Program-made: the position numbers and the translations under genes | Shown: positions 6,527-35,849 of the stretch, one piece after another | Layout of the letters: each line of letters begins with the position of its first letter | Numbering within the stretch: position 1 is the first letter of the stretch | The notes under the pieces: generated by a model | Seen by the model: the letters and a program-made list of their open reading frames with translations, nothing else | Database searches by the model: none | What the model was told of the DNA's origin: nothing | Virus record (IMG/VR): IMGVR_UViG_2778261667_000013 | Coordinates: 1-36,128 of that record | Reading direction: 5' to 3' (one strand) | Length of the DNA: 36,128 nucleotides | DNA from: a virus | Taxonomy: Duplodnaviria; Heunggongvirae; Uroviricota; Caudoviricetes

Positions 6527-6541
6527 GAGGGTGTTCAGCAC
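6527..6541 (-). promoter_or_regulatory. conserved motif GGGTGTTCAGCACCC-like, site 1 (between gp45-like and gp46-like genes)
   Basis: gagggtgttcagcac on the plus strand, ~40 nt upstream of the gp46-like start; coordinates approximate. Confidence 0.4.
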
Positions 6542-7195
6542 TTAATTAACCGGCGTGTCAGACATGCCGTGTGGGGTTGGGTGTTTGTGTGTTCCGATTT
6601 TAACGCCATTAATGGTGACGTCAACGGAGGTAAGCACACCACCTACATGGTTGATGTTGCCTTCAAAAGTGGCGGCGTATTCCTTGCCCCCACTGATGGC
6701 CATGCCACCGTTGCCGGTGATTTTACCTTCCACCGTCAGCTTATCGCTGGCCGTCAGTAACGGTGTCGTGAATGCGGCGTTCTCCTCTGCCTCAACCTCA
6801 TAGCGTTTGCATTTCACCCGGTAAACGTCACATTCTGTTTCAATAATCCGCCCGCGCTTCAGTACGATTTTTGCGCCTTCGTCGGTATACAGGGCCACCT
6901 CGCCGGGTTTCAGTTCCGTCAGGCGATATGCGCCGTGCTCTGTGGCCACGACGACGGTATGGGAGGTATTGCCGTTCAGCGGAACGGCAATACCCATTGA
7001 GCCGGGCGGCGGGGATGTGGTGAGGCCGTAATGCTGAAAATACTCCGCACCGTCCAGCTGTTCGCCTGCCAGCCCGTTCAACTGAAGCAACTGTACTTTG
7101 GTCGAACTGTCCACCGTACCGGTCACCACCCTGAATGCCTGGCGAACGGCGGACAGCGCCTGCTGTATGCGCTGATTAATCTTGTCCCACATCAT
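6542..7195 (-). CDS. baseplate assembly/spike protein (Mu Q / gp45-like, V-family)
   Basis: 217 aa; position between P-like and gp46-like genes; 4-nt overlap with upstream gene. Confidence 0.65.
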   Translation of the reverse strand: MMWDKINQRIQQALSAVRQAFRVVTGTVDSSTKVQLLQLNGLAGEQLDGAEYFQHYGLTTSPPPGSMGIAVPLNGNTSHTVVVATEHGAYRLTELKPGEVALYTDEGAKIVLKRGRIIETECDVYRVKCKRYEVEAEENAAFTTPLLTASDKLTVEGKITGNGGMAISGGKEYAATFEGNINHVGGVLTSVDVTINGVKIGTHKHPTPHGMSDTPVN

Positions 7196-17311: not shown

Positions 17312-18436
17312 TTACTTGTCTCCTGCGTAACGGGCGACATCCTCTGGATCAACGCCCATCATTGAACAAATGGCGATATCGACATCGACGTCATCGCCGG
17401 TTTTAATCTGCGCCGGGGCCGGTGACGGCGTTTTGGGTGGTTTGCCGCCGGTCTGGGTGCTGCTGAGTGCGGCAAGCGGGGTGGTTTTATCCAGCCAGGT
17501 TTTAAAACCGTTGATATCGCGACGGGCGTAATCTTTCGCCCAGTCTTCCAGCGTCGGAAGCAGTCGCCCGTCAGACAGCGCCGCCTGAATCAGTGCCCCG
17601 GCTTCGGCTTCACCGGACTGTTGCGCCAGTACGGCATAACGTCCCTGAAGTTCTTCATATGCCGTCAGAGGGATATGCTTCGTCGGGTCATAGGCATTTG
17701 CTGACAGGCTGGCGATTTGCTCGTCTTTCTGATTCAGCAGGGCCAGCAGGCTGACGGATGCCGCCGCCGTTCCCTGACCGTTCGAAATCATGTCAACGAC
17801 CTTTTGCAGCTCGTTTTTGATATCTTCCGCCGTTGAGGTAACCGGGAGGTTAAGCATCCAGCGCAGGTCGGAAAGCAAATTGTTTAACAGTTCTTCATCC
17901 ACCGTTGTGGTCTCCGTTTCAGTTGACAGACTCGCCAGACGACTGGCCGCAGCCAGCATGACCGCGTCCATACCGTCCAGCGCCGGGGTATTGGTCAGCG
18001 CAGCATGTAACAGCTCCAGCACTTCGCCGCGCTTGTTGTAGGCAAAAACAGGGGAAATAAATTTGTACTCACCGGCGGCAATCATGGCCGCCGCGTTCTC
18101 CGTCCACTCCACACCGGTGGCATACAGGCCCACACCTTCACGCCATTCCACCTGGCTGAACCAGCCCGCCGCCGGGGCGGGCTTGCCGTTGTTTACGGCG
18201 CGCAGCGTCTGATGTTCGTAATCAATGACAAAAGGCGTGGTACGGGCTGCCACCTGTGCGACAAGCTGCGCGGCCAGTTCGGCAGTCAGCACCCATTTAC
18301 CGCTTTCGACTTCATCGGTATGTGGGCGACCATCCACCGCACTGAACTCGCCTGCCGGAAACAGCTGGATTTCGCTGTGGGTTGCTTTGGTGATTTCGAG
18401 GCTTAATGCCGCAATGTTCATCTTCATACGCGGCAT
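17312..18436 (-). CDS. head maturation protease / scaffold protein (Mu I-like)
   Basis: ORF 17312..18481 begins at a GTG inside a conserved intergenic motif; likely start is one of the ATGs at MPRMKM (18436/18427/18421); start uncertain. Confidence 0.75.
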   Translation of the reverse strand: MPRMKMNIAALSLEITKATHSEIQLFPAGEFSAVDGRPHTDEVESGKWVLTAELAAQLVAQVAARTTPFVIDYEHQTLRAVNNGKPAPAAGWFSQVEWREGVGLYATGVEWTENAAAMIAAGEYKFISPVFAYNKRGEVLELLHAALTNTPALDGMDAVMLAAASRLASLSTETETTTVDEELLNNLLSDLRWMLNLPVTSTAEDIKNELQKVVDMISNGQGTAAASVSLLALLNQKDEQIASLSANAYDPTKHIPLTAYEELQGRYAVLAQQSGEAEAGALIQAALSDGRLLPTLEDWAKDYARRDINGFKTWLDKTTPLAALSSTQTGGKPPKTPSPAPAQIKTGDDVDVDIAICSMMGVDPEDVARYAGDK

Positions 18437-18465
18437 GATGACGGAAGGGGAGCACGGGGTACTGT

Positions 18466-18483
18466 GGAGGGTGTTCAGCACCC
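18466..18483 (-). promoter_or_regulatory. conserved motif site 2 (G-I intergenic region, upstream of protease/scaffold gene)
   Basis: gggtactgtggagggtgttcagcaccct; shares ~27 of 30 positions with site 3. Confidence 0.45.
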
Positions 18484-18636
18484 TGCCATAACGCGAAAGG
18501 ATAAAAGGGGAAATAAAACCGTTTTTAAAACCCTTTTAAAAACGATTCTGACAGCATTTACGGGGTGCAGTGCTGTAATGCCTCATCCGTGAGGCGTTTA
18601 TGTTGTCACAGGCGATTACAGCGCGTTTGTGGCCAT

Positions 18637-19188
18637 TCAGTCAATCACCCGCGCAAAATAGCGGTTTGCGGTGTTCTCCAGCTCGTCGATGTCGTCCTGC
18701 ACAAGCTGAAGGAAGGGACGCGCGGGCATGTTGACTGTATACGCTCCGACCGTTGCGCTCTGCACAAAATTACTGTTGCGCTTTTTCACAAAACGGCTGC
18801 TGACGCTGCCGTTTTTGTACTGTTTAAAATACAGGTTCTGCGTCCGTGCCTGATGGCGTATTTCGCCGCCTTCGTTGTGGATACGGGCATAACGAACGTT
18901 TGTCCCGACCGTGGCCTCGTTATTGTTAACCGCAGAGCGGATACTGGCAGCCAGTCGCCCGGACTTCTGAAGGATTTGCCCGGGGCCGCGTCGCTTCGCA
19001 TAAGCCGGACTCCAGCCCATCCATTTCGGGCGCCCCTGTTGTTCAAAGTTAGTTTCAACCGCATCCAGCATGGAACCCGCAAGCGCCGTCATCAGGTCGC
19101 GCCGGTCCTTCACGGAACGAATCAGGTTACCCAGCGTGGTGTTATACGCGCTTAAATCAATCTTAATATCCAGTTTACCGTTGCTCAT
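18637..19188 (-). CDS. virion morphogenesis protein (Mu G-like)
   Basis: 183 aa; synteny between F and I; 4-nt overlap with F. Confidence 0.75.
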   Translation of the reverse strand: MSNGKLDIKIDLSAYNTTLGNLIRSVKDRRDLMTALAGSMLDAVETNFEQQGRPKWMGWSPAYAKRRGPGQILQKSGRLAASIRSAVNNNEATVGTNVRYARIHNEGGEIRHQARTQNLYFKQYKNGSVSSRFVKKRNSNFVQSATVGAYTVNMPARPFLQLVQDDIDELENTANRYFARVID

Positions 19189-20351
19189 GATGCCTCCGGG
19201 GTGTCCTGCATAACCCAGTCTGTCAGCGCGTCATCCTCAACCGTCGCCACTGACCAGCGGTCGCCCGACTGTAACGCATACCGCCACGCGTTGCCGTCCT
19301 GCGTGACATGCTCCGCCCGTTCGATGGTCTGCTGCATCAGCACATAGTCGGCGGCGGTCGGGGGCGTGTCTGCTGCACTGAGGCGCTTCATGACGTCAGC
19401 CGTAAGGTTTACCGTCTGCCGTGCAGCGCCCGTGGCAGCGACCTGTTCCGGTGACCGGATGGCCAGCGGATATCGCTGGCGTGCATCCAGTTCGCTGACG
19501 TTTGCCAGTCCCCGGGCAAAATCCGGCCCGGTCAGAGTGCCGGTGACATACTGGCGGGCACTGCGGTAATCATATTTTTCCAGTTCCGGCTGCCATGCCA
19601 CCCGACCGGGATTAAATCCGAAGCCCGGGTCGGCGGTATACACGGAACCGTCCGGCATCTTCAGCCCCATTGTTCTGATGGTCTGGCCCGGCTGGCCATA
19701 TTCCTGCTCAACCTCAGCCAGTCGCCCCTCGCTGCTCTGTACCGTCAGGCCATATTTCTCCACATCCGACGCCGAACGCGCCCGGATACGGCAGCGGCAT
19801 CCGTATCCGTCCGGCGCGTAGAAATACTCCCAGACCGGATCATCCGCCCGGGCGGTAAAACCGTTCAGGGCGGCGTGTTTCGGGCGTGTGTGAAGGTCCA
19901 TCACCGCCACGCGCTCAAAATAAGGCCGGTCAGCCACGTTCGCCATCTGCTGCTGATAACGTCCGGCGTTGTATGACGACTGAATATTGGTATCAAATAT
20001 CGTGCGCAACCGGCGCGGCGTCAGCTGTCTGCCGTGCAGTTCGCCGGTATCCTCGTCCACAATCAGTTTTTTACCCAGCCAGCCTTTTGATTCCAGCAGT
20101 GGTTCCAGTTGTGCAGCAAACTCCCGGAACGTCCCGCCGTCAGCCAGTGCAGCCGTCAGGCCATCACGGACATCCTTCAGAACATCCAGTTTCAGCACGC
20201 CCGCCACCGTGAACGCCCGGGCGTTGGCGATGTCCTTCACATCGTGCCAGCGGAAGCCAATAACGTACCCCTTGCTTTCGAAATACTTAATCGCTTCTTC
20301 CGGTTTCAGGGTGTACGCATAACCCAGGTCAACATCGTCAGTTGTCGGCAT
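19185..20351 (-). CDS. head morphogenesis / minor head protein (Mu F-like)
   Basis: 388 aa immediately downstream of portal gene with overlap; Mu F-like by size and order. Confidence 0.8.
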   Translation of the reverse strand: MPTTDDVDLGYAYTLKPEEAIKYFESKGYVIGFRWHDVKDIANARAFTVAGVLKLDVLKDVRDGLTAALADGGTFREFAAQLEPLLESKGWLGKKLIVDEDTGELHGRQLTPRRLRTIFDTNIQSSYNAGRYQQQMANVADRPYFERVAVMDLHTRPKHAALNGFTARADDPVWEYFYAPDGYGCRCRIRARSASDVEKYGLTVQSSEGRLAEVEQEYGQPGQTIRTMGLKMPDGSVYTADPGFGFNPGRVAWQPELEKYDYRSARQYVTGTLTGPDFARGLANVSELDARQRYPLAIRSPEQVAATGAARQTVNLTADVMKRLSAADTPPTAADYVLMQQTIERAEHVTQDGNAWRYALQSGDRWSVATVEDDALTDWVMQDTPEAS

Positions 20352-25885: not shown

Positions 25886-25914
25886 ACTGCTGGGGGTGTT
25901 CAGCACCCCCAGCA
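25886..25914 (-). promoter_or_regulatory. conserved motif site 3 (upstream of lysis cassette), 12 bp perfect inverted repeat
   Basis: ctgctgggggtg-ttcag-cacccccagcag; ~140 nt upstream of the holin start. Confidence 0.45.
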
Positions 25915-25933
25915 GGTTGATTAGCTGGATGGG

Positions 25934-26248: not shown

Positions 26249-26280
26249 TTAATCAAAAAGCCCCACCTGGGTGGGGCTTT
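26249..26280 (-). terminator. rho-independent terminator overlapping the 3' end of the Mor/C gene
   Basis: Minus-strand hairpin GCCCCACC-CA-GGTGGGGC followed by TTTTTGAT and the stop codon; coordinates approximate. Confidence 0.6.
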
Positions 26281-26716
26281 TCAGCGAAGTCTGTTTTTGT
26301 CGTCGGTGTATCAGCTGCCATGCGTACCGGTCTGAAATGCCGTAACGGGGACAGAGCAGTGCCAGCGCCTGCCGGTGTGAGCATCCGTCTTTTACATGCT
26401 GCTGTAAATCAGCCATAAAACGGGTGTTACGCAGGGCACGTAACGCATGATCGCAACGGGGAATGTAAAACGGCGCACCGCCAAGAAAGCGGATCAGTTT
26501 GTTGATTTCGTCTTCGGTCAGCACATCATGTAACAGGGCATGGACACCGCCGGTTCGTTCGGCGTGTGCGCCGGTTTTACCGCTTAACGTCACGCCACCA
26601 AAAGAACGGATTAACCGGGTCAGGGCGGGGAAGCCAATCACGCTAATCAGTTGCTGCACGGAATCAGGCAACAGTGCCTGCGCATCGCGAAGATCTGTTT
26701 CACTGAAGGTCTGCAT
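26249..26716 (-). CDS. Mor/C-family transcriptional activator (middle/late gene activator)
   Basis: 155 aa; C-terminal region ...FLGGAPFYIPRCDHALRALRN...RYGISDRYAWQLIHRR matches the Mor/C signature (GG..YIPR plus C-terminal HTH). Confidence 0.8.
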   Translation of the reverse strand: MQTFSETDLRDAQALLPDSVQQLISVIGFPALTRLIRSFGGVTLSGKTGAHAERTGGVHALLHDVLTEDEINKLIRFLGGAPFYIPRCDHALRALRNTRFMADLQQHVKDGCSHRQALALLCPRYGISDRYAWQLIHRRQKQTSLKSPTQVGLFD

Positions 26717-27476: not shown

Positions 27477-27499
27477 AATGACCAAAACACTACTTTTGG

Positions 27500-27525
27500 C
27501 AGACCAAAACATATGTTTTGGTCTG
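27500..27525. promoter_or_regulatory. 26 bp perfect palindrome CAGACCAAAACATATGTTTTGGTCTG (operator-like site)
   Basis: Perfect dyad centred on CATATG, preceded by a second CCAAAAC...TTTTGG inverted repeat at ~27482-27499; intergenic between two early ORFs; coordinates approximate. Confidence 0.5.
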
Positions 27526-27556
27526 CGCTTAATTGTTATTTGCTCAATGCGGTGAA

Positions 27557-33806: not shown

Positions 33807-35849
33807 TTAACGGTTGTTTGTGCCGTTTTTCTTTAAATTGCGCTCGCGTTCAGATGCGAATAAATAAAGTTCTTCTTTTTCCTTTTTCTCCTGGCGTTCC
33901 AGTCCATATCCCAGATTAAACTCAGGCTTCTGCGTAATAGCCGGGGTAAGCTCGCGTTTAGCCTCTTCGATTTTCTGCGCGGCCCGTGCAATGCGGCCTC
34001 TGACGCGTTTCTCCAGTTTTTGCTCGATAACTGGTTTAGCGAAGGCATCAACCTTGTTACCGTTCCAGATGGCATCGCAGATATAAGAGCCATCAGCCCG
34101 CCGGACAATGACACTGTTTGCATCATGAATATCGTAACTGACCCTGACTTCATTCCCGTGCTCTGCGGCCAGCTCATACGAGTAATAAATATTGTTGAAT
34201 AACTGAATTTCCCCGCGAAATGTTTTGCGCGTCACTTCCGGTCTGAACATTTCATGCAGTTCTTCCGGCGACAGGAAATCAATTTCAACATTCTGCTCTT
34301 TTATCAGTTTCCGGCGATACGCTGCCGGGCTGTAATATTCGCCATCCTCTTTGCGGGGAAGGCTGCTGTGTGGCCGGTTGTTATAGCGTCTGACCTCCAG
34401 TTCTATGGCTGCCATCAGTTGCTCAAAGGTGGGGATTTCATCCCTCGCCTTAACCTGCCGTTTTGTCAGTTCTTTCCCTTTGTGGGTGGCCTTAATGGCT
34501 GACTGCATAATCCGTTGCTGCATCATTACGGTTTCCTTGTCTGCTCCCTTTGAGCAGTACGTCTGGAAACTCAGGGCCACATCCCGGGGAATTTCCTTGT
34601 TAAGCCTTTCAATCACCCCGCGCCCCTGCGGGTTACCTGGTATCCCCGTGTGATGTTCCACACCCAGCCGGGGGAGAATCCCGGTAATATCGGCATCAAG
34701 AACCCGGTTTTTTTCGCCGCCCCCGTTATCGGAGTAATAAATCAGCGGTATCCCGTGCTGTGCCATGCCGTAACGCAACGCATCAGCAACGGCTATCACG
34801 TTCTCCGACAGGGACAGCGACCAGCCCACAACAAAGCGTTGCCCCGCATCCATAACCAGCGTCACTTCTGGCCGGAAAATATTGCCGGTCAGTGGGTTAA
34901 ACGCGGTCATCTTCATACAGTGACCATCCCCGACCCATACCGCATTAACCGGTAGCGATGTCCAGTCGCGCCGCACAAAGGGATTGAGCGAACGCCAGGC
35001 TGAACCGGTGGAGCGGAAACGCTCCTTAACAATCACCGGGACGTTGCTTAACACCCGTCTTACTGCGTGAACGGAAGGCAGTGCTGCCAGCATTCCCGCA
35101 TCATTCGCGTGTTTTTCATGCCACCAGGCTGAAAACTCGCGATAAGCGTATTCAACGGTCGGGCGCTTCCATGAGCGATAGAACATAAAGAAATCGCTCA
35201 ACCACCAGACCTGCTCCCACGGTGTTCCCTTATGATGACCGGGAGCCAGTAACGCCAGTAACTGATTGGCATCACCGCGCGCCATCAGCCAGGCGGAATA
35301 CCATTCCTGTAAACATCCCCAGCTGACGCCAGTTCGCTTACCCTGTCTGGCGTTGGCAGTACCTGCGGCCTCAATAATGCGGTCAGGCAATGCCCTCTGA
35401 CGAATACCATCAACGATGTGTTTTACTGCTGCCGTCCTGGACATTCCTGCGTATTCACGCAGTTTATGCACTTCGGTAGCCAGCAATATCCGCGCATCAG
35501 CGATGGCCTTTTGCTTGTCGGTCAGTGCCTGGACTTCGCGTAATGCCAGTTCCGGGCATTTGACCATCACTTCCAGTTCATCGCGAACGGTAACGTTTTT
35601 AACTGCCTTCTGCTCAACCACGGCAGGCAGTTGTGCATCTTCCAGAACCTGATGGGTCAGGCGTTTACGTAAAACTTTCTGCGCTTCAGCAGGCAGGCAG
35701 TCGATGTGATACTCGAATGCTTTGGTGCCTTCACGCTTGCGCTTCCATTCCGGGTTATTTTCAGCAAGACGATCCAGACGTGCCCGGATGTTTTTTTCTG
35801 CTGATGGAAAACCGGATAATCCCAGGCAATCCCGCACTACAAACCACAC
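33807..35849 (-). CDS. MuA-like DDE transposase
   Basis: 680 aa; catalytic-core-like motifs WVGDGH and YYSDNGGGE; located between ner-like and B-like genes as in Mu. Confidence 0.9.
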   Translation of the reverse strand: MWFVVRDCLGLSGFPSAEKNIRARLDRLAENNPEWKRKREGTKAFEYHIDCLPAEAQKVLRKRLTHQVLEDAQLPAVVEQKAVKNVTVRDELEVMVKCPELALREVQALTDKQKAIADARILLATEVHKLREYAGMSRTAAVKHIVDGIRQRALPDRIIEAAGTANARQGKRTGVSWGCLQEWYSAWLMARGDANQLLALLAPGHHKGTPWEQVWWLSDFFMFYRSWKRPTVEYAYREFSAWWHEKHANDAGMLAALPSVHAVRRVLSNVPVIVKERFRSTGSAWRSLNPFVRRDWTSLPVNAVWVGDGHCMKMTAFNPLTGNIFRPEVTLVMDAGQRFVVGWSLSLSENVIAVADALRYGMAQHGIPLIYYSDNGGGEKNRVLDADITGILPRLGVEHHTGIPGNPQGRGVIERLNKEIPRDVALSFQTYCSKGADKETVMMQQRIMQSAIKATHKGKELTKRQVKARDEIPTFEQLMAAIELEVRRYNNRPHSSLPRKEDGEYYSPAAYRRKLIKEQNVEIDFLSPEELHEMFRPEVTRKTFRGEIQLFNNIYYSYELAAEHGNEVRVSYDIHDANSVIVRRADGSYICDAIWNGNKVDAFAKPVIEQKLEKRVRGRIARAAQKIEEAKRELTPAITQKPEFNLGYGLERQEKKEKEELYLFASERERNLKKNGTNNR

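Follow-up and report, generated by a model that had tools for sequence, protein, structure and literature searches.

Introduction

[quoted passage not shown] The gap between the Mu G and I genes, in which it lies, reportedly also contains the rho-independent terminator of the lys transcript, a finding attributed to Zha, Zhao and Howe in 1994. Central sites resembling the SGS are likewise said to have been described by Oram and Pato in 2004, in D108 and in Sp18 of E. coli O157:H7 Sakai. The Mu SGS is reported to be replaceable by the Sakai site (PMC10052514).

[quoted passage not shown] The special quality of this arm has so far been described just as 'phased bending signals'. With the 130-bp gyrase motif obtained by Topo-Seq in E. 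coli (Sutormin et al. 2018, PMC6379681), the Mu SGS reaches a score of 13-14, the highest in the Mu genome. According to a 2021 survey, it is unclear if gyrase sites are conserved among transposable phages (PMC8705779).

In the Mu genome (GenBank AF083977), the G gene stops at 17859, gyrase cuts at 17879/80, a terminator predicted by TransTermHP occupies 17908-17953, the late promoter P_I extends from 17977 to 18043, and the I gene starts at 18056. This annotation agrees with the original prediction for the DNA studied here, which had placed a gyrase site and the late promoter for I in the Mu G-I gap and had pointed to an AT-rich palindrome in the corresponding gap of another phage. Here we compare that gap with the Mu site.

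The prophage and its G-I gap

The stretch of DNA analysed, referred to below as the window (36,128 nucleotides, IMG/VR record IMGVR_UViG_2778261667_000013), is a Mu-like E. coli prophage distinct from Mu, and the phage genes of the region examined are all on the minus strand. The two genes flanking the gap had been recognised as G-like and I-like, and matches to the respective protein families bear this out; F-like, portal and T-like genes surround the pair, and the Mu gene order is kept.

18637..19188, minus strand: G-like virion morphogenesis gene (Pfam Phage_tail_S, the Mu G family, 4.2e-26), upstream border of the gap
17312..18427, minus strand: I-like protease/scaffold gene (Pfam Mu-like_Pro, the Mu I family, 1.5e-99), with the start used in RefSeq

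The RefSeq name for the equivalent of the G-like gene is 'phage virion morphogenesis protein'. Of 5426 complete E. coli genomes, 55 (~1%) carry near-identical copies of the prophage (94-98%), among them EPEC E2348/69, where the prophage measures 35.7 kb and is inserted in eutC. The closest deposited phage is Klebsiella phage ST405-OXA48phi1.1, the I protein of which is 44% identical, and the clade is also represented in Klebsiella, Buttiauxella, Trabulsiella and Intestinirhabdus. In DNA-level searches, the window gave no match to Mu, and the gap had no similarity to Mu or to any deposited phage.

The gap had been given as 155 bp long, a size that turned out to be an artefact of an open reading frame beginning with GTG at 18481. 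The Mu-like_Pro domain begins only at residue 38 of that GTG-initiated frame (17312-18481), and the RefSeq start of the E2348/69 copy corresponds to the ATG at 18427, so that the gap is ~209 bp long (18428-18636); we took 18427 as the start of the I-like gene, the alternatives being ATG 18436 and ATG 18421. The central location of the gap was confirmed, as it lies at 0.51 of the window and, counted from the transposase end, at 0.54 of the E2348/69 prophage of 35.7 kb; in IMG/VR contigs of 33-36 kb, the value is 0.48-0.54.

Apart from the palindrome and its surroundings, the gap contains three further features.

18469..18483, minus strand: box GGGTGCTGAACACCC resembling a late promoter ('motif site 2'), at the position that P_I has in Mu
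18580..18595, no strand assigned: GC-rich hairpin GCCTCA-NNNN-TGAGGC, -9.3 kcal/mol, with a T-run on the plus strand, antisense
18615..18628, minus strand: conserved non-coding box AAACGCGCTGTAAT, the left arm of a GC-rich terminator present in the gaps of related loci (L008-L010, L088)

The box GGGTGCTGAACACCC occurs in three minus-strand copies, each in front of a block of late genes (lysis, I and baseplate); the sequence shared by all copies, GTGCTGAACACCC, is at 18469-18481, and the other copies are at 25906 and 6541. Thus the predicted 'motif site 2' exists as one of three copies, but it does not lie wholly within the gap as originally drawn, since it straddles the boundary set at 18481/18482. 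Relatives keep CTGAAC(C/A)CC at the equivalent position, and a single gene for an activator of the Mor/C family is located upstream of all three boxes. A sigma-70 promoter scan of 18000-19200 returned no sites.

A conserved palindrome in the gap

The palindrome was indeed found to be a perfect AT-rich repeat of 25 bp, as predicted; its real location is one base to the left of the predicted ~18521-18545.

18520-18544, no strand assigned: perfect palindrome CGTTTTTAAAA-CCC-TTTTAAAAACG (plus-strand reading), with 11-nt arms and a 3-nt loop
18516..18550, minus strand: invariant block CAGAATCGTTTTTAAAAGGGTTTTAAAAACGGTTT, 35 nt, identical in 18 distinct E. coli-type sequences
18484..18519, minus strand: phased T-blocks GTTTTATTT-CCCC-TTTTAT-CC-TTT, read from the sequence, extending an A/T periodicity of ~11-12 bp

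The arms can be extended to 14 nt at 93% complementarity (18517-18547), and the single-stranded DNA hairpin has a predicted energy of -9.2 kcal/mol (z = -3.3). Perfect repeats with arms of at least 11 nt and a loop of at most 10 nt appeared at a frequency of 0.115 per dinucleotide-shuffled window, with at least one in 18 of 200 shuffles, and the only occurrence of TTTTTAAAA in the window, against 0.26 expected, is the palindrome itself; on both grounds, the palindrome is more than a product of chance.

On the late-gene strand, the palindrome forms the beginning of a longer regular pattern. The T5A4, T4A5, TTTTATTT and TTTTAT blocks follow each other at ~11-12 bp, that is, they are phased in the way of the bending signals in the SGS right arm. 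The amplitude of the A/T periodicity at an 11-bp period was 0.39 over 18498-18567 (z = 3.7), which placed the region in the top 0.06-0.3%. Such periodicity is nevertheless not diagnostic, because even the real Mu arm reached only z = 2.2-2.6, and this in longer windows.

To judge the conservation, we compared the gap at increasing distances. In 18 E. coli variants aligned over 336 columns, the longest invariant run was the 35-nt block (18550 to 18516) and the next longest was 17 nt, while 32 of the 83 columns (39%) directly upstream of the block varied, and the stretch 18580..18595 varies among E. coli-type prophages as well. In the next sample, relatives were collected through the G protein in species-representative genomes, which gave Intestinirhabdus, Trabulsiella, Buttiauxella and one further relative, with G proteins 51-81% identical. 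All four kept C(G/A)TTTTTAAAA at the equivalent position; in two of them, the right arm had decayed to GGGGTTTAACAG(G/C)GG and the T-run following it was lost. In the Klebsiella phage, the palindrome is present and its spacer differs.

An exact-pattern scan of IMG/VR with GTTTTTAAA-N5-TTTAAAAAC returned 89 contigs, and in ~62 of them the match was located precisely between the G-like and I-like genes, 82-100 nt past the G stop. The proteins of these ~62 contigs are 42-58% identical to those of the window (the lowest values being 48% for G and 42% for I), and the 5-nt spacer took at least 12 forms, among them AGGGT, AAGGT, TCGTG, CGGGT, AACGG and AGCGG. The near-exact conservation of the 10-nt arms is tighter than indirect readout by gyrase predicts and would suit a sequence-specific protein.

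Since the exact-pattern scan selects for intact arms, a second sample was drawn through a distant G protein, blind to the motif (22 loci, at least 55% identity to the query). The sequence TTTTTAAA was in place in 19 of the 22 loci, several of these 19 having a decayed right arm (TTTAAACGGGG, TTTAAATGGGG); two of the 22 loci carry extra genes inserted behind G, and in one locus, L191, both sides were changed with a 7-bp dyad kept. Altogether, the right arm of the palindrome has decayed in about one third of lineages, and the left half persists. Across lineages with 42-58% protein identity, the element is found 82-113 nt past the G stop.

We conclude that strong purifying selection acts on the palindrome as DNA throughout a broad clade of prophages. 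What is conserved is a DNA element with a core of two T-tract/A-tract units about one helical turn apart, and the perfect palindrome is one form of it.

[quoted passage not shown]

For comparison on the Mu side, we used the Mu G protein to gather the Mu clade, which gave 23 loci with 55-99% identity, and aligned their G-I gaps. The sequence of the Mu cleavage site itself has diverged in the members with 55-57% identity. The conserved columns were found further to the right, starting 37 bp right of the Mu cut, and read ATTTTT(A/G)AA-N3-4-GT(A/T)TT(T/G)AA, with a further unit one turn after this stretch.

A pattern common to the two clades, TTTTT[AG]AA-N5-6-TTT[AG]A (motif P), was defined post hoc, when both clades had already been seen, and for this reason the following figures overstate its formal significance. 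Motif P was present in 23 of 23 Mu-clade G-I gaps, the members with 55-57% identity included, and, among the window-clade gaps obtained by way of a G protein, in 23 of 26. Its only place in the window is the palindrome, where both strands carry it; the Mu genome has two matches, one at 17913 in the right arm (+37 from the annotated cut) and one at 35253 on the minus strand. No match was found in 200 kb of E. coli W3110 (K-12), searched on both strands, or in 45.6 kb of DNA flanking the sampled loci.

Local alignment of the Mu gap with the window gap scored 28, compared to 17 +/- 2.3 in shuffled sequences, none of 500 of which reached 28. Using nhmmer, a profile of the clade element gave nothing significant against the Mu genome, the Mu-clade loci and control DNA (~240 kb). 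The Mu right arm was hit with E = 5-8 genome-wide, and with ~0.005 only if the search is limited a priori to the 196-bp Mu gap; this profile misses the TTTTTGAA variants. The similarity of the palindrome to Mu consists of a short low-complexity motif and its position.

The proposed alignment with the Mu site gave a mixed outcome: a rare motif is common to both gaps, and the profile E-value of ~5-8 is not significant. [quoted passage not shown]

The likeness extends to the setting of the two elements. Both are located in the same G-I gap at the centre of a transposable prophage of ~36 kb, which also holds the late promoter of I and a hairpin resembling a terminator; in both, motif P is on the coding strand and more phased T-blocks come after it. 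On the other hand, outside the short motif the DNA cannot be aligned, the G and I proteins are only distantly similar to those of Mu and the cleavage-core sequence is different; moreover, the window element is a perfect palindrome located 82-113 nt past the G stop, compared to ~54 nt in Mu. The sites of Sp18 and D108 are also central G-I sites in relatives of Mu, but those relatives are members of the Mu clade itself, with right arms that can be aligned to the Mu arm, whereas the window represents a separate clade. An Sp18-like element within an Stx2c phage record keeps ATTTTCTAACCTGTATTTAACGG.

Scoring of the gap for gyrase cleavage

Next, the gap was scored for gyrase cleavage. The target was the published 130-bp Topo-Seq matrix, of which we made an approximate reconstruction from 428 published site scores in positions 1-200 kb of W3110, using a symmetric model with a frequency prior and ridge regression (cross-validated r = 0.87 against the published scores). 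The reconstructed matrix gave the Mu SGS a score of 9.4 (published 13.3), at rank 6-8 in Mu, and we gave its results little weight. Two other scoring schemes were discarded: a matrix from plain ridge regression (cross-validated r = 0.80), with which the Mu SGS was not at the top, and a crude strong/weak template (G+C versus A+T) derived from the published consensus, which put the gap first (z = 4.5, cut at ~18593) and the Mu SGS sixth and was too coarse.

The best score in the gap was obtained for the following site.

18577..18580, minus-strand reading: predicted 4-bp gyrase cleavage stagger, GAGG|CATT|ACAGC, from the approximate matrix

With a score of 7.0, compared to 9.4 for the Mu SGS with the same approximate matrix, this site ranks ~235 among 36,000 positions of the window, i.e. 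in the top 1%, whereas in Mu the reconstructed matrix puts the SGS among the top 0.02% of positions. The predicted cut is 38 bp upstream of the T5A4 block, and the real cut of Mu is 37 bp upstream of its T5A3 block.

This geometry recurs in the clade. With R as the first T of the T5A4 block, the best site within 150 bp was at R-36 to R-38 in 14 of 22 diverse lineages, an agreement to which the conserved element common to them contributes. When just the core was scored, a part that has no overlap with the element, the result was above background in 20 of 20 lineages, by a mean z of 1.3, and the averaged core-only profile has a modest peak at -38. In an early registration, the T5A4 block of the window had been equated with the first T6A4 block of Mu at +15, with a cut GTAA|ATGC at ~18557; it was dropped because the matrix prefers R-38 and because the Mu-clade alignment shows that it is the +37 element that is conserved.

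As to the chromosomal sites mapped by Topo-Seq, they resemble the window region in the ~11-bp alternation of A/T and G/C flanking a central site, but the strong ones are without a T5A3-TTTAA module of the motif P type, and the A/T content of their arms did not correlate with the cleavage signal (r = -0.03).

Taken together, the shared motif and the geometry partly support the original view that the gap is the place to look for an equivalent of the Mu site; on this comparison, the palindrome would match the right-arm element and not the cleavage site. We tentatively propose, at a little short of an even chance, that the gap is a new member of the family of Mu-type central gyrase sites, in which case the palindrome would probably be wrapped arm DNA rather than the place of cleavage.

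Possible alternative roles of the palindrome

One alternative is that the palindrome is the site of a sequence-specific dimeric protein, either of the phage or a host nucleoid protein, which might act in prophage organisation or late-operon regulation and have nothing to do with gyrase. A perfect dyad with a constant 10+5+10 geometry, in which the arms are identical and only the 5-nt spacer is free to vary, is what such a protein would be expected to leave, and so is the invariance of the palindrome among the E. coli variants, which exceeds what the weak sequence preference of gyrase requires; even the two-sided change in L191 retains a 7-bp dyad. The decay of the right arm (TTTAAACGGGG, TTTAACAGGGG) with the left half kept, seen in about one third of the lineages sampled motif-blind, would however be unusual for a dimer, and the form that the motif takes in the Mu clade has no palindromic symmetry. 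No convincing IHF or Fis consensus was seen by eye, and a site for the Mor/C-type activator is contradicted by the other two late-promoter boxes, which lack the element. We consider a dimeric protein site unlikely, with some chance of being correct.

A second possibility is that the palindrome acts mainly as RNA, ending transcription of the preceding late operon (lysis through G) as an intrinsic terminator, in the manner of the terminator of the Mu lys transcript. The minus-strand hairpin is followed by GUUUUAUUU, the T-run is on the sense strand only, and the extended stem reaches -12.3 kcal/mol; the first T-block GTTTTATTT doubles as the U-tract behind this hairpin. The terminator predicted in Mu is at the equivalent place, between G and the I promoter on the coding strand, and its tail GTTTTATCTTCC is closely similar, both hairpins being followed by GTTTTAT(C/T)TT. 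The Mu stem, though, is closed by G-C pairs and has -19.8 kcal/mol, whereas the stem in the window is nearly all A-U, with 2 G-C pairs in its 11-bp arms, which by themselves give -6.3 kcal/mol, and its tail is not conserved. The U-tract is restricted to the E. coli lineage and is missing in most of the relatives that keep the palindrome; changes in the stem are not compensatory, with decay of the right arm, and a consensus scan for terminators did not call the palindrome. A search of Rfam 15 found no family match, only two chance-level hits (20 and 16 bits against gathering thresholds of 50 and 100).

The relatives offer a further comparison. Loci L008-L010 have a canonical GC-rich terminator just after G, AAACGCGC...GCGCGTTTTTAT, with -11 to -15 kcal/mol and a T-run behind it. 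The window has lost the right arm of this terminator, a point in favour of a terminator role, and has a GC hairpin in its place (18580..18595), which would be a poor terminator of late transcripts because its T-run is antisense to the phage genes. In L008-L010, the GC-rich terminator lies between G and the element, so that the element would be hardly transcribed there, and it is conserved all the same. The element is also independent of its RNA context in a wider sense, with a strong terminator upstream of it in L008-L010 and downstream of it in members of the Mu clade. In the E. coli lineage, the hairpin with GUUUUAUUU may weakly terminate transcripts of the preceding late operon; such a role cannot explain the conservation of the palindrome, and a mainly RNA-level function appears improbable to us.

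Finally, it is very unlikely that the AT-rich phased block is the upstream architecture of the I late promoter, as curved or UP-like DNA helping a Mor/C-type activator or RNA polymerase: its helically phased A/T tracts are typical of upstream curved DNA and in the window, L008, L009 and L010 it is 41-44 bp upstream of the CTGAAC box, but this distance is ~70 bp in the Klebsiella and L011 lineages, the Mu motif precedes the P_I start by over 100 bp and falls outside the annotated 67-bp promoter, and the palindrome is an element apart from the late-promoter box, 37 bp upstream of it, with no such block at the other two boxes of the window.

Organisation of the central region as a putative gyrase site

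The explanation we prefer is a composite central region resembling that of Mu. The gap would be organised, in the direction of late transcription, as a terminator remnant after G, an SGS-like site, the late promoter box and the I gene, with the SGS-like right arm beginning at the palindrome and continuing through the phased T-blocks. By analogy with Mu, host DNA gyrase would bind with its cleavage centre near 18577-18580, ~38 bp ahead of the palindrome. The T5A4, T4A5, TTTTATTT and TTTTAT blocks, each with a flexible TpA step, would wrap one C-terminal domain of GyrA, and the wrapped blocks would present the T segment. Processive supercoiling from the centre of the prophage could then favour synapsis of the two distant ends for replicative transposition after induction. 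Our confidence in this explanation is not higher because the gyrase step depends on the analogy and because the conservation is tighter than indirect readout needs. Since central gyrase sites in relatives of Mu are known (PMC10052514), the site in the window would be a new member from a different clade.

We hold with clearly greater doubt a more general idea, namely that TTTTT[AG]AA-N5-6-TTT[AG]A at ~37 bp from the cut is a portable determinant that turns an ordinary gyrase site into a processive 'strong' one of the kind found in transposable phages; this seems possible, if rather unlikely. If it is true, the module, two flexible T-tract/A-tract units spaced by one helical turn, would be common to two or more clades of Mu-like prophages that diverged deeply and would provide a signature for finding such sites.

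A separate enterobacterial clade of Mu-like prophages thus keeps a short, near-invariant element at the same central junction at which Mu has its gyrase site, and the shared motif gives a testable handle on the question of gyrase-site conservation among transposable phages. If gyrase does not act here, a strongly selected central site would be left without explanation, which would be still more interesting. If it does, the clades would supply natural variants with which to dissect the arm (palindromic or non-palindromic, TTTAAA versus TTTGAA), together with a simple site finder.

Putative late-promoter boxes and the start of the I-like gene

The sequence GTGCTGAACACCC was found in three copies on the coding strand of the window, each of them directly upstream of one late gene block, and the window holds a single gene for an activator of the Mor/C family.

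Copies of GTGCTGAACACCC and the activator gene in the window
25893-25908 (-): box 1, ahead of the lysis genes
18468-18483 (-): box 2, ahead of I
6527-6543 (-): box 3, ahead of the gp46-like baseplate gene
26249-26716 (-): Mor/C-family activator gene, the only one of its kind

The three copies are probably the late-promoter boxes on which this lone activator acts. At boxes 2 and 3 the distance to the start codon is only ~55 nt, so that the leaders of these transcripts would be very short. In the 18421-18481 region, the longest I-like ORF begins with a GTG that falls within the promoter box, and the true start is probably ATG 18427, the choice made by RefSeq for the near-identical prophage of E. 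coli E2348/69, or ATG 18436. No clear Shine-Dalgarno sequence was seen at any of the candidate I-like starts (18421-18481).

Palindromes and terminators

Box 1 is enclosed by a longer perfect palindrome, CTGGGGGTG-CTGAA-CACCCCCAG (25887-25915), of which only the dyad remnants GGGTG/CACCC and GTG/CAC are present at box 2 and box 3, respectively. The V-like baseplate gene also contains a perfect palindrome with 13-nt arms, GGGTATTGCCGTTC..GAACGGCAATACC (6965-6994), and its centre, CGCTGAAC, is similar to the late-promoter core. In the early/middle region, a loopless 28-bp perfect palindrome (GCAGACCAAAACAT|ATGTTTTGGTCTGC, 27499-27526) has the appearance of an operator or activator site.

The Mor/C-like gene carries at its 3ʹ end a canonical GC-rich terminator, AAAAGCCCCACC-cagg-GGTGGGGCTTTTT (26256-26281, minus strand), which parallels the one that follows gene C in Mu. 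The intergenic region between the G-like and I-like genes holds the conserved box AAACGCGCTGTAAT (18615-18628, minus strand), which in the relatives L008-L010 forms one half, the left arm, of a strong terminator; in the window the right arm is replaced by a different GC hairpin (18580-18595), with its T-run on the antisense (+) strand.

The G-I junction

[quoted passage not shown] In two IMG/VR relatives (L189 and L193), extra ORFs directly follow the G-like gene and replace the usual gap, and in D3112-like phages the equivalent junction carries anti-CRISPR genes (PMC8705779). The G-I junction looks like a hotspot of gene insertion.
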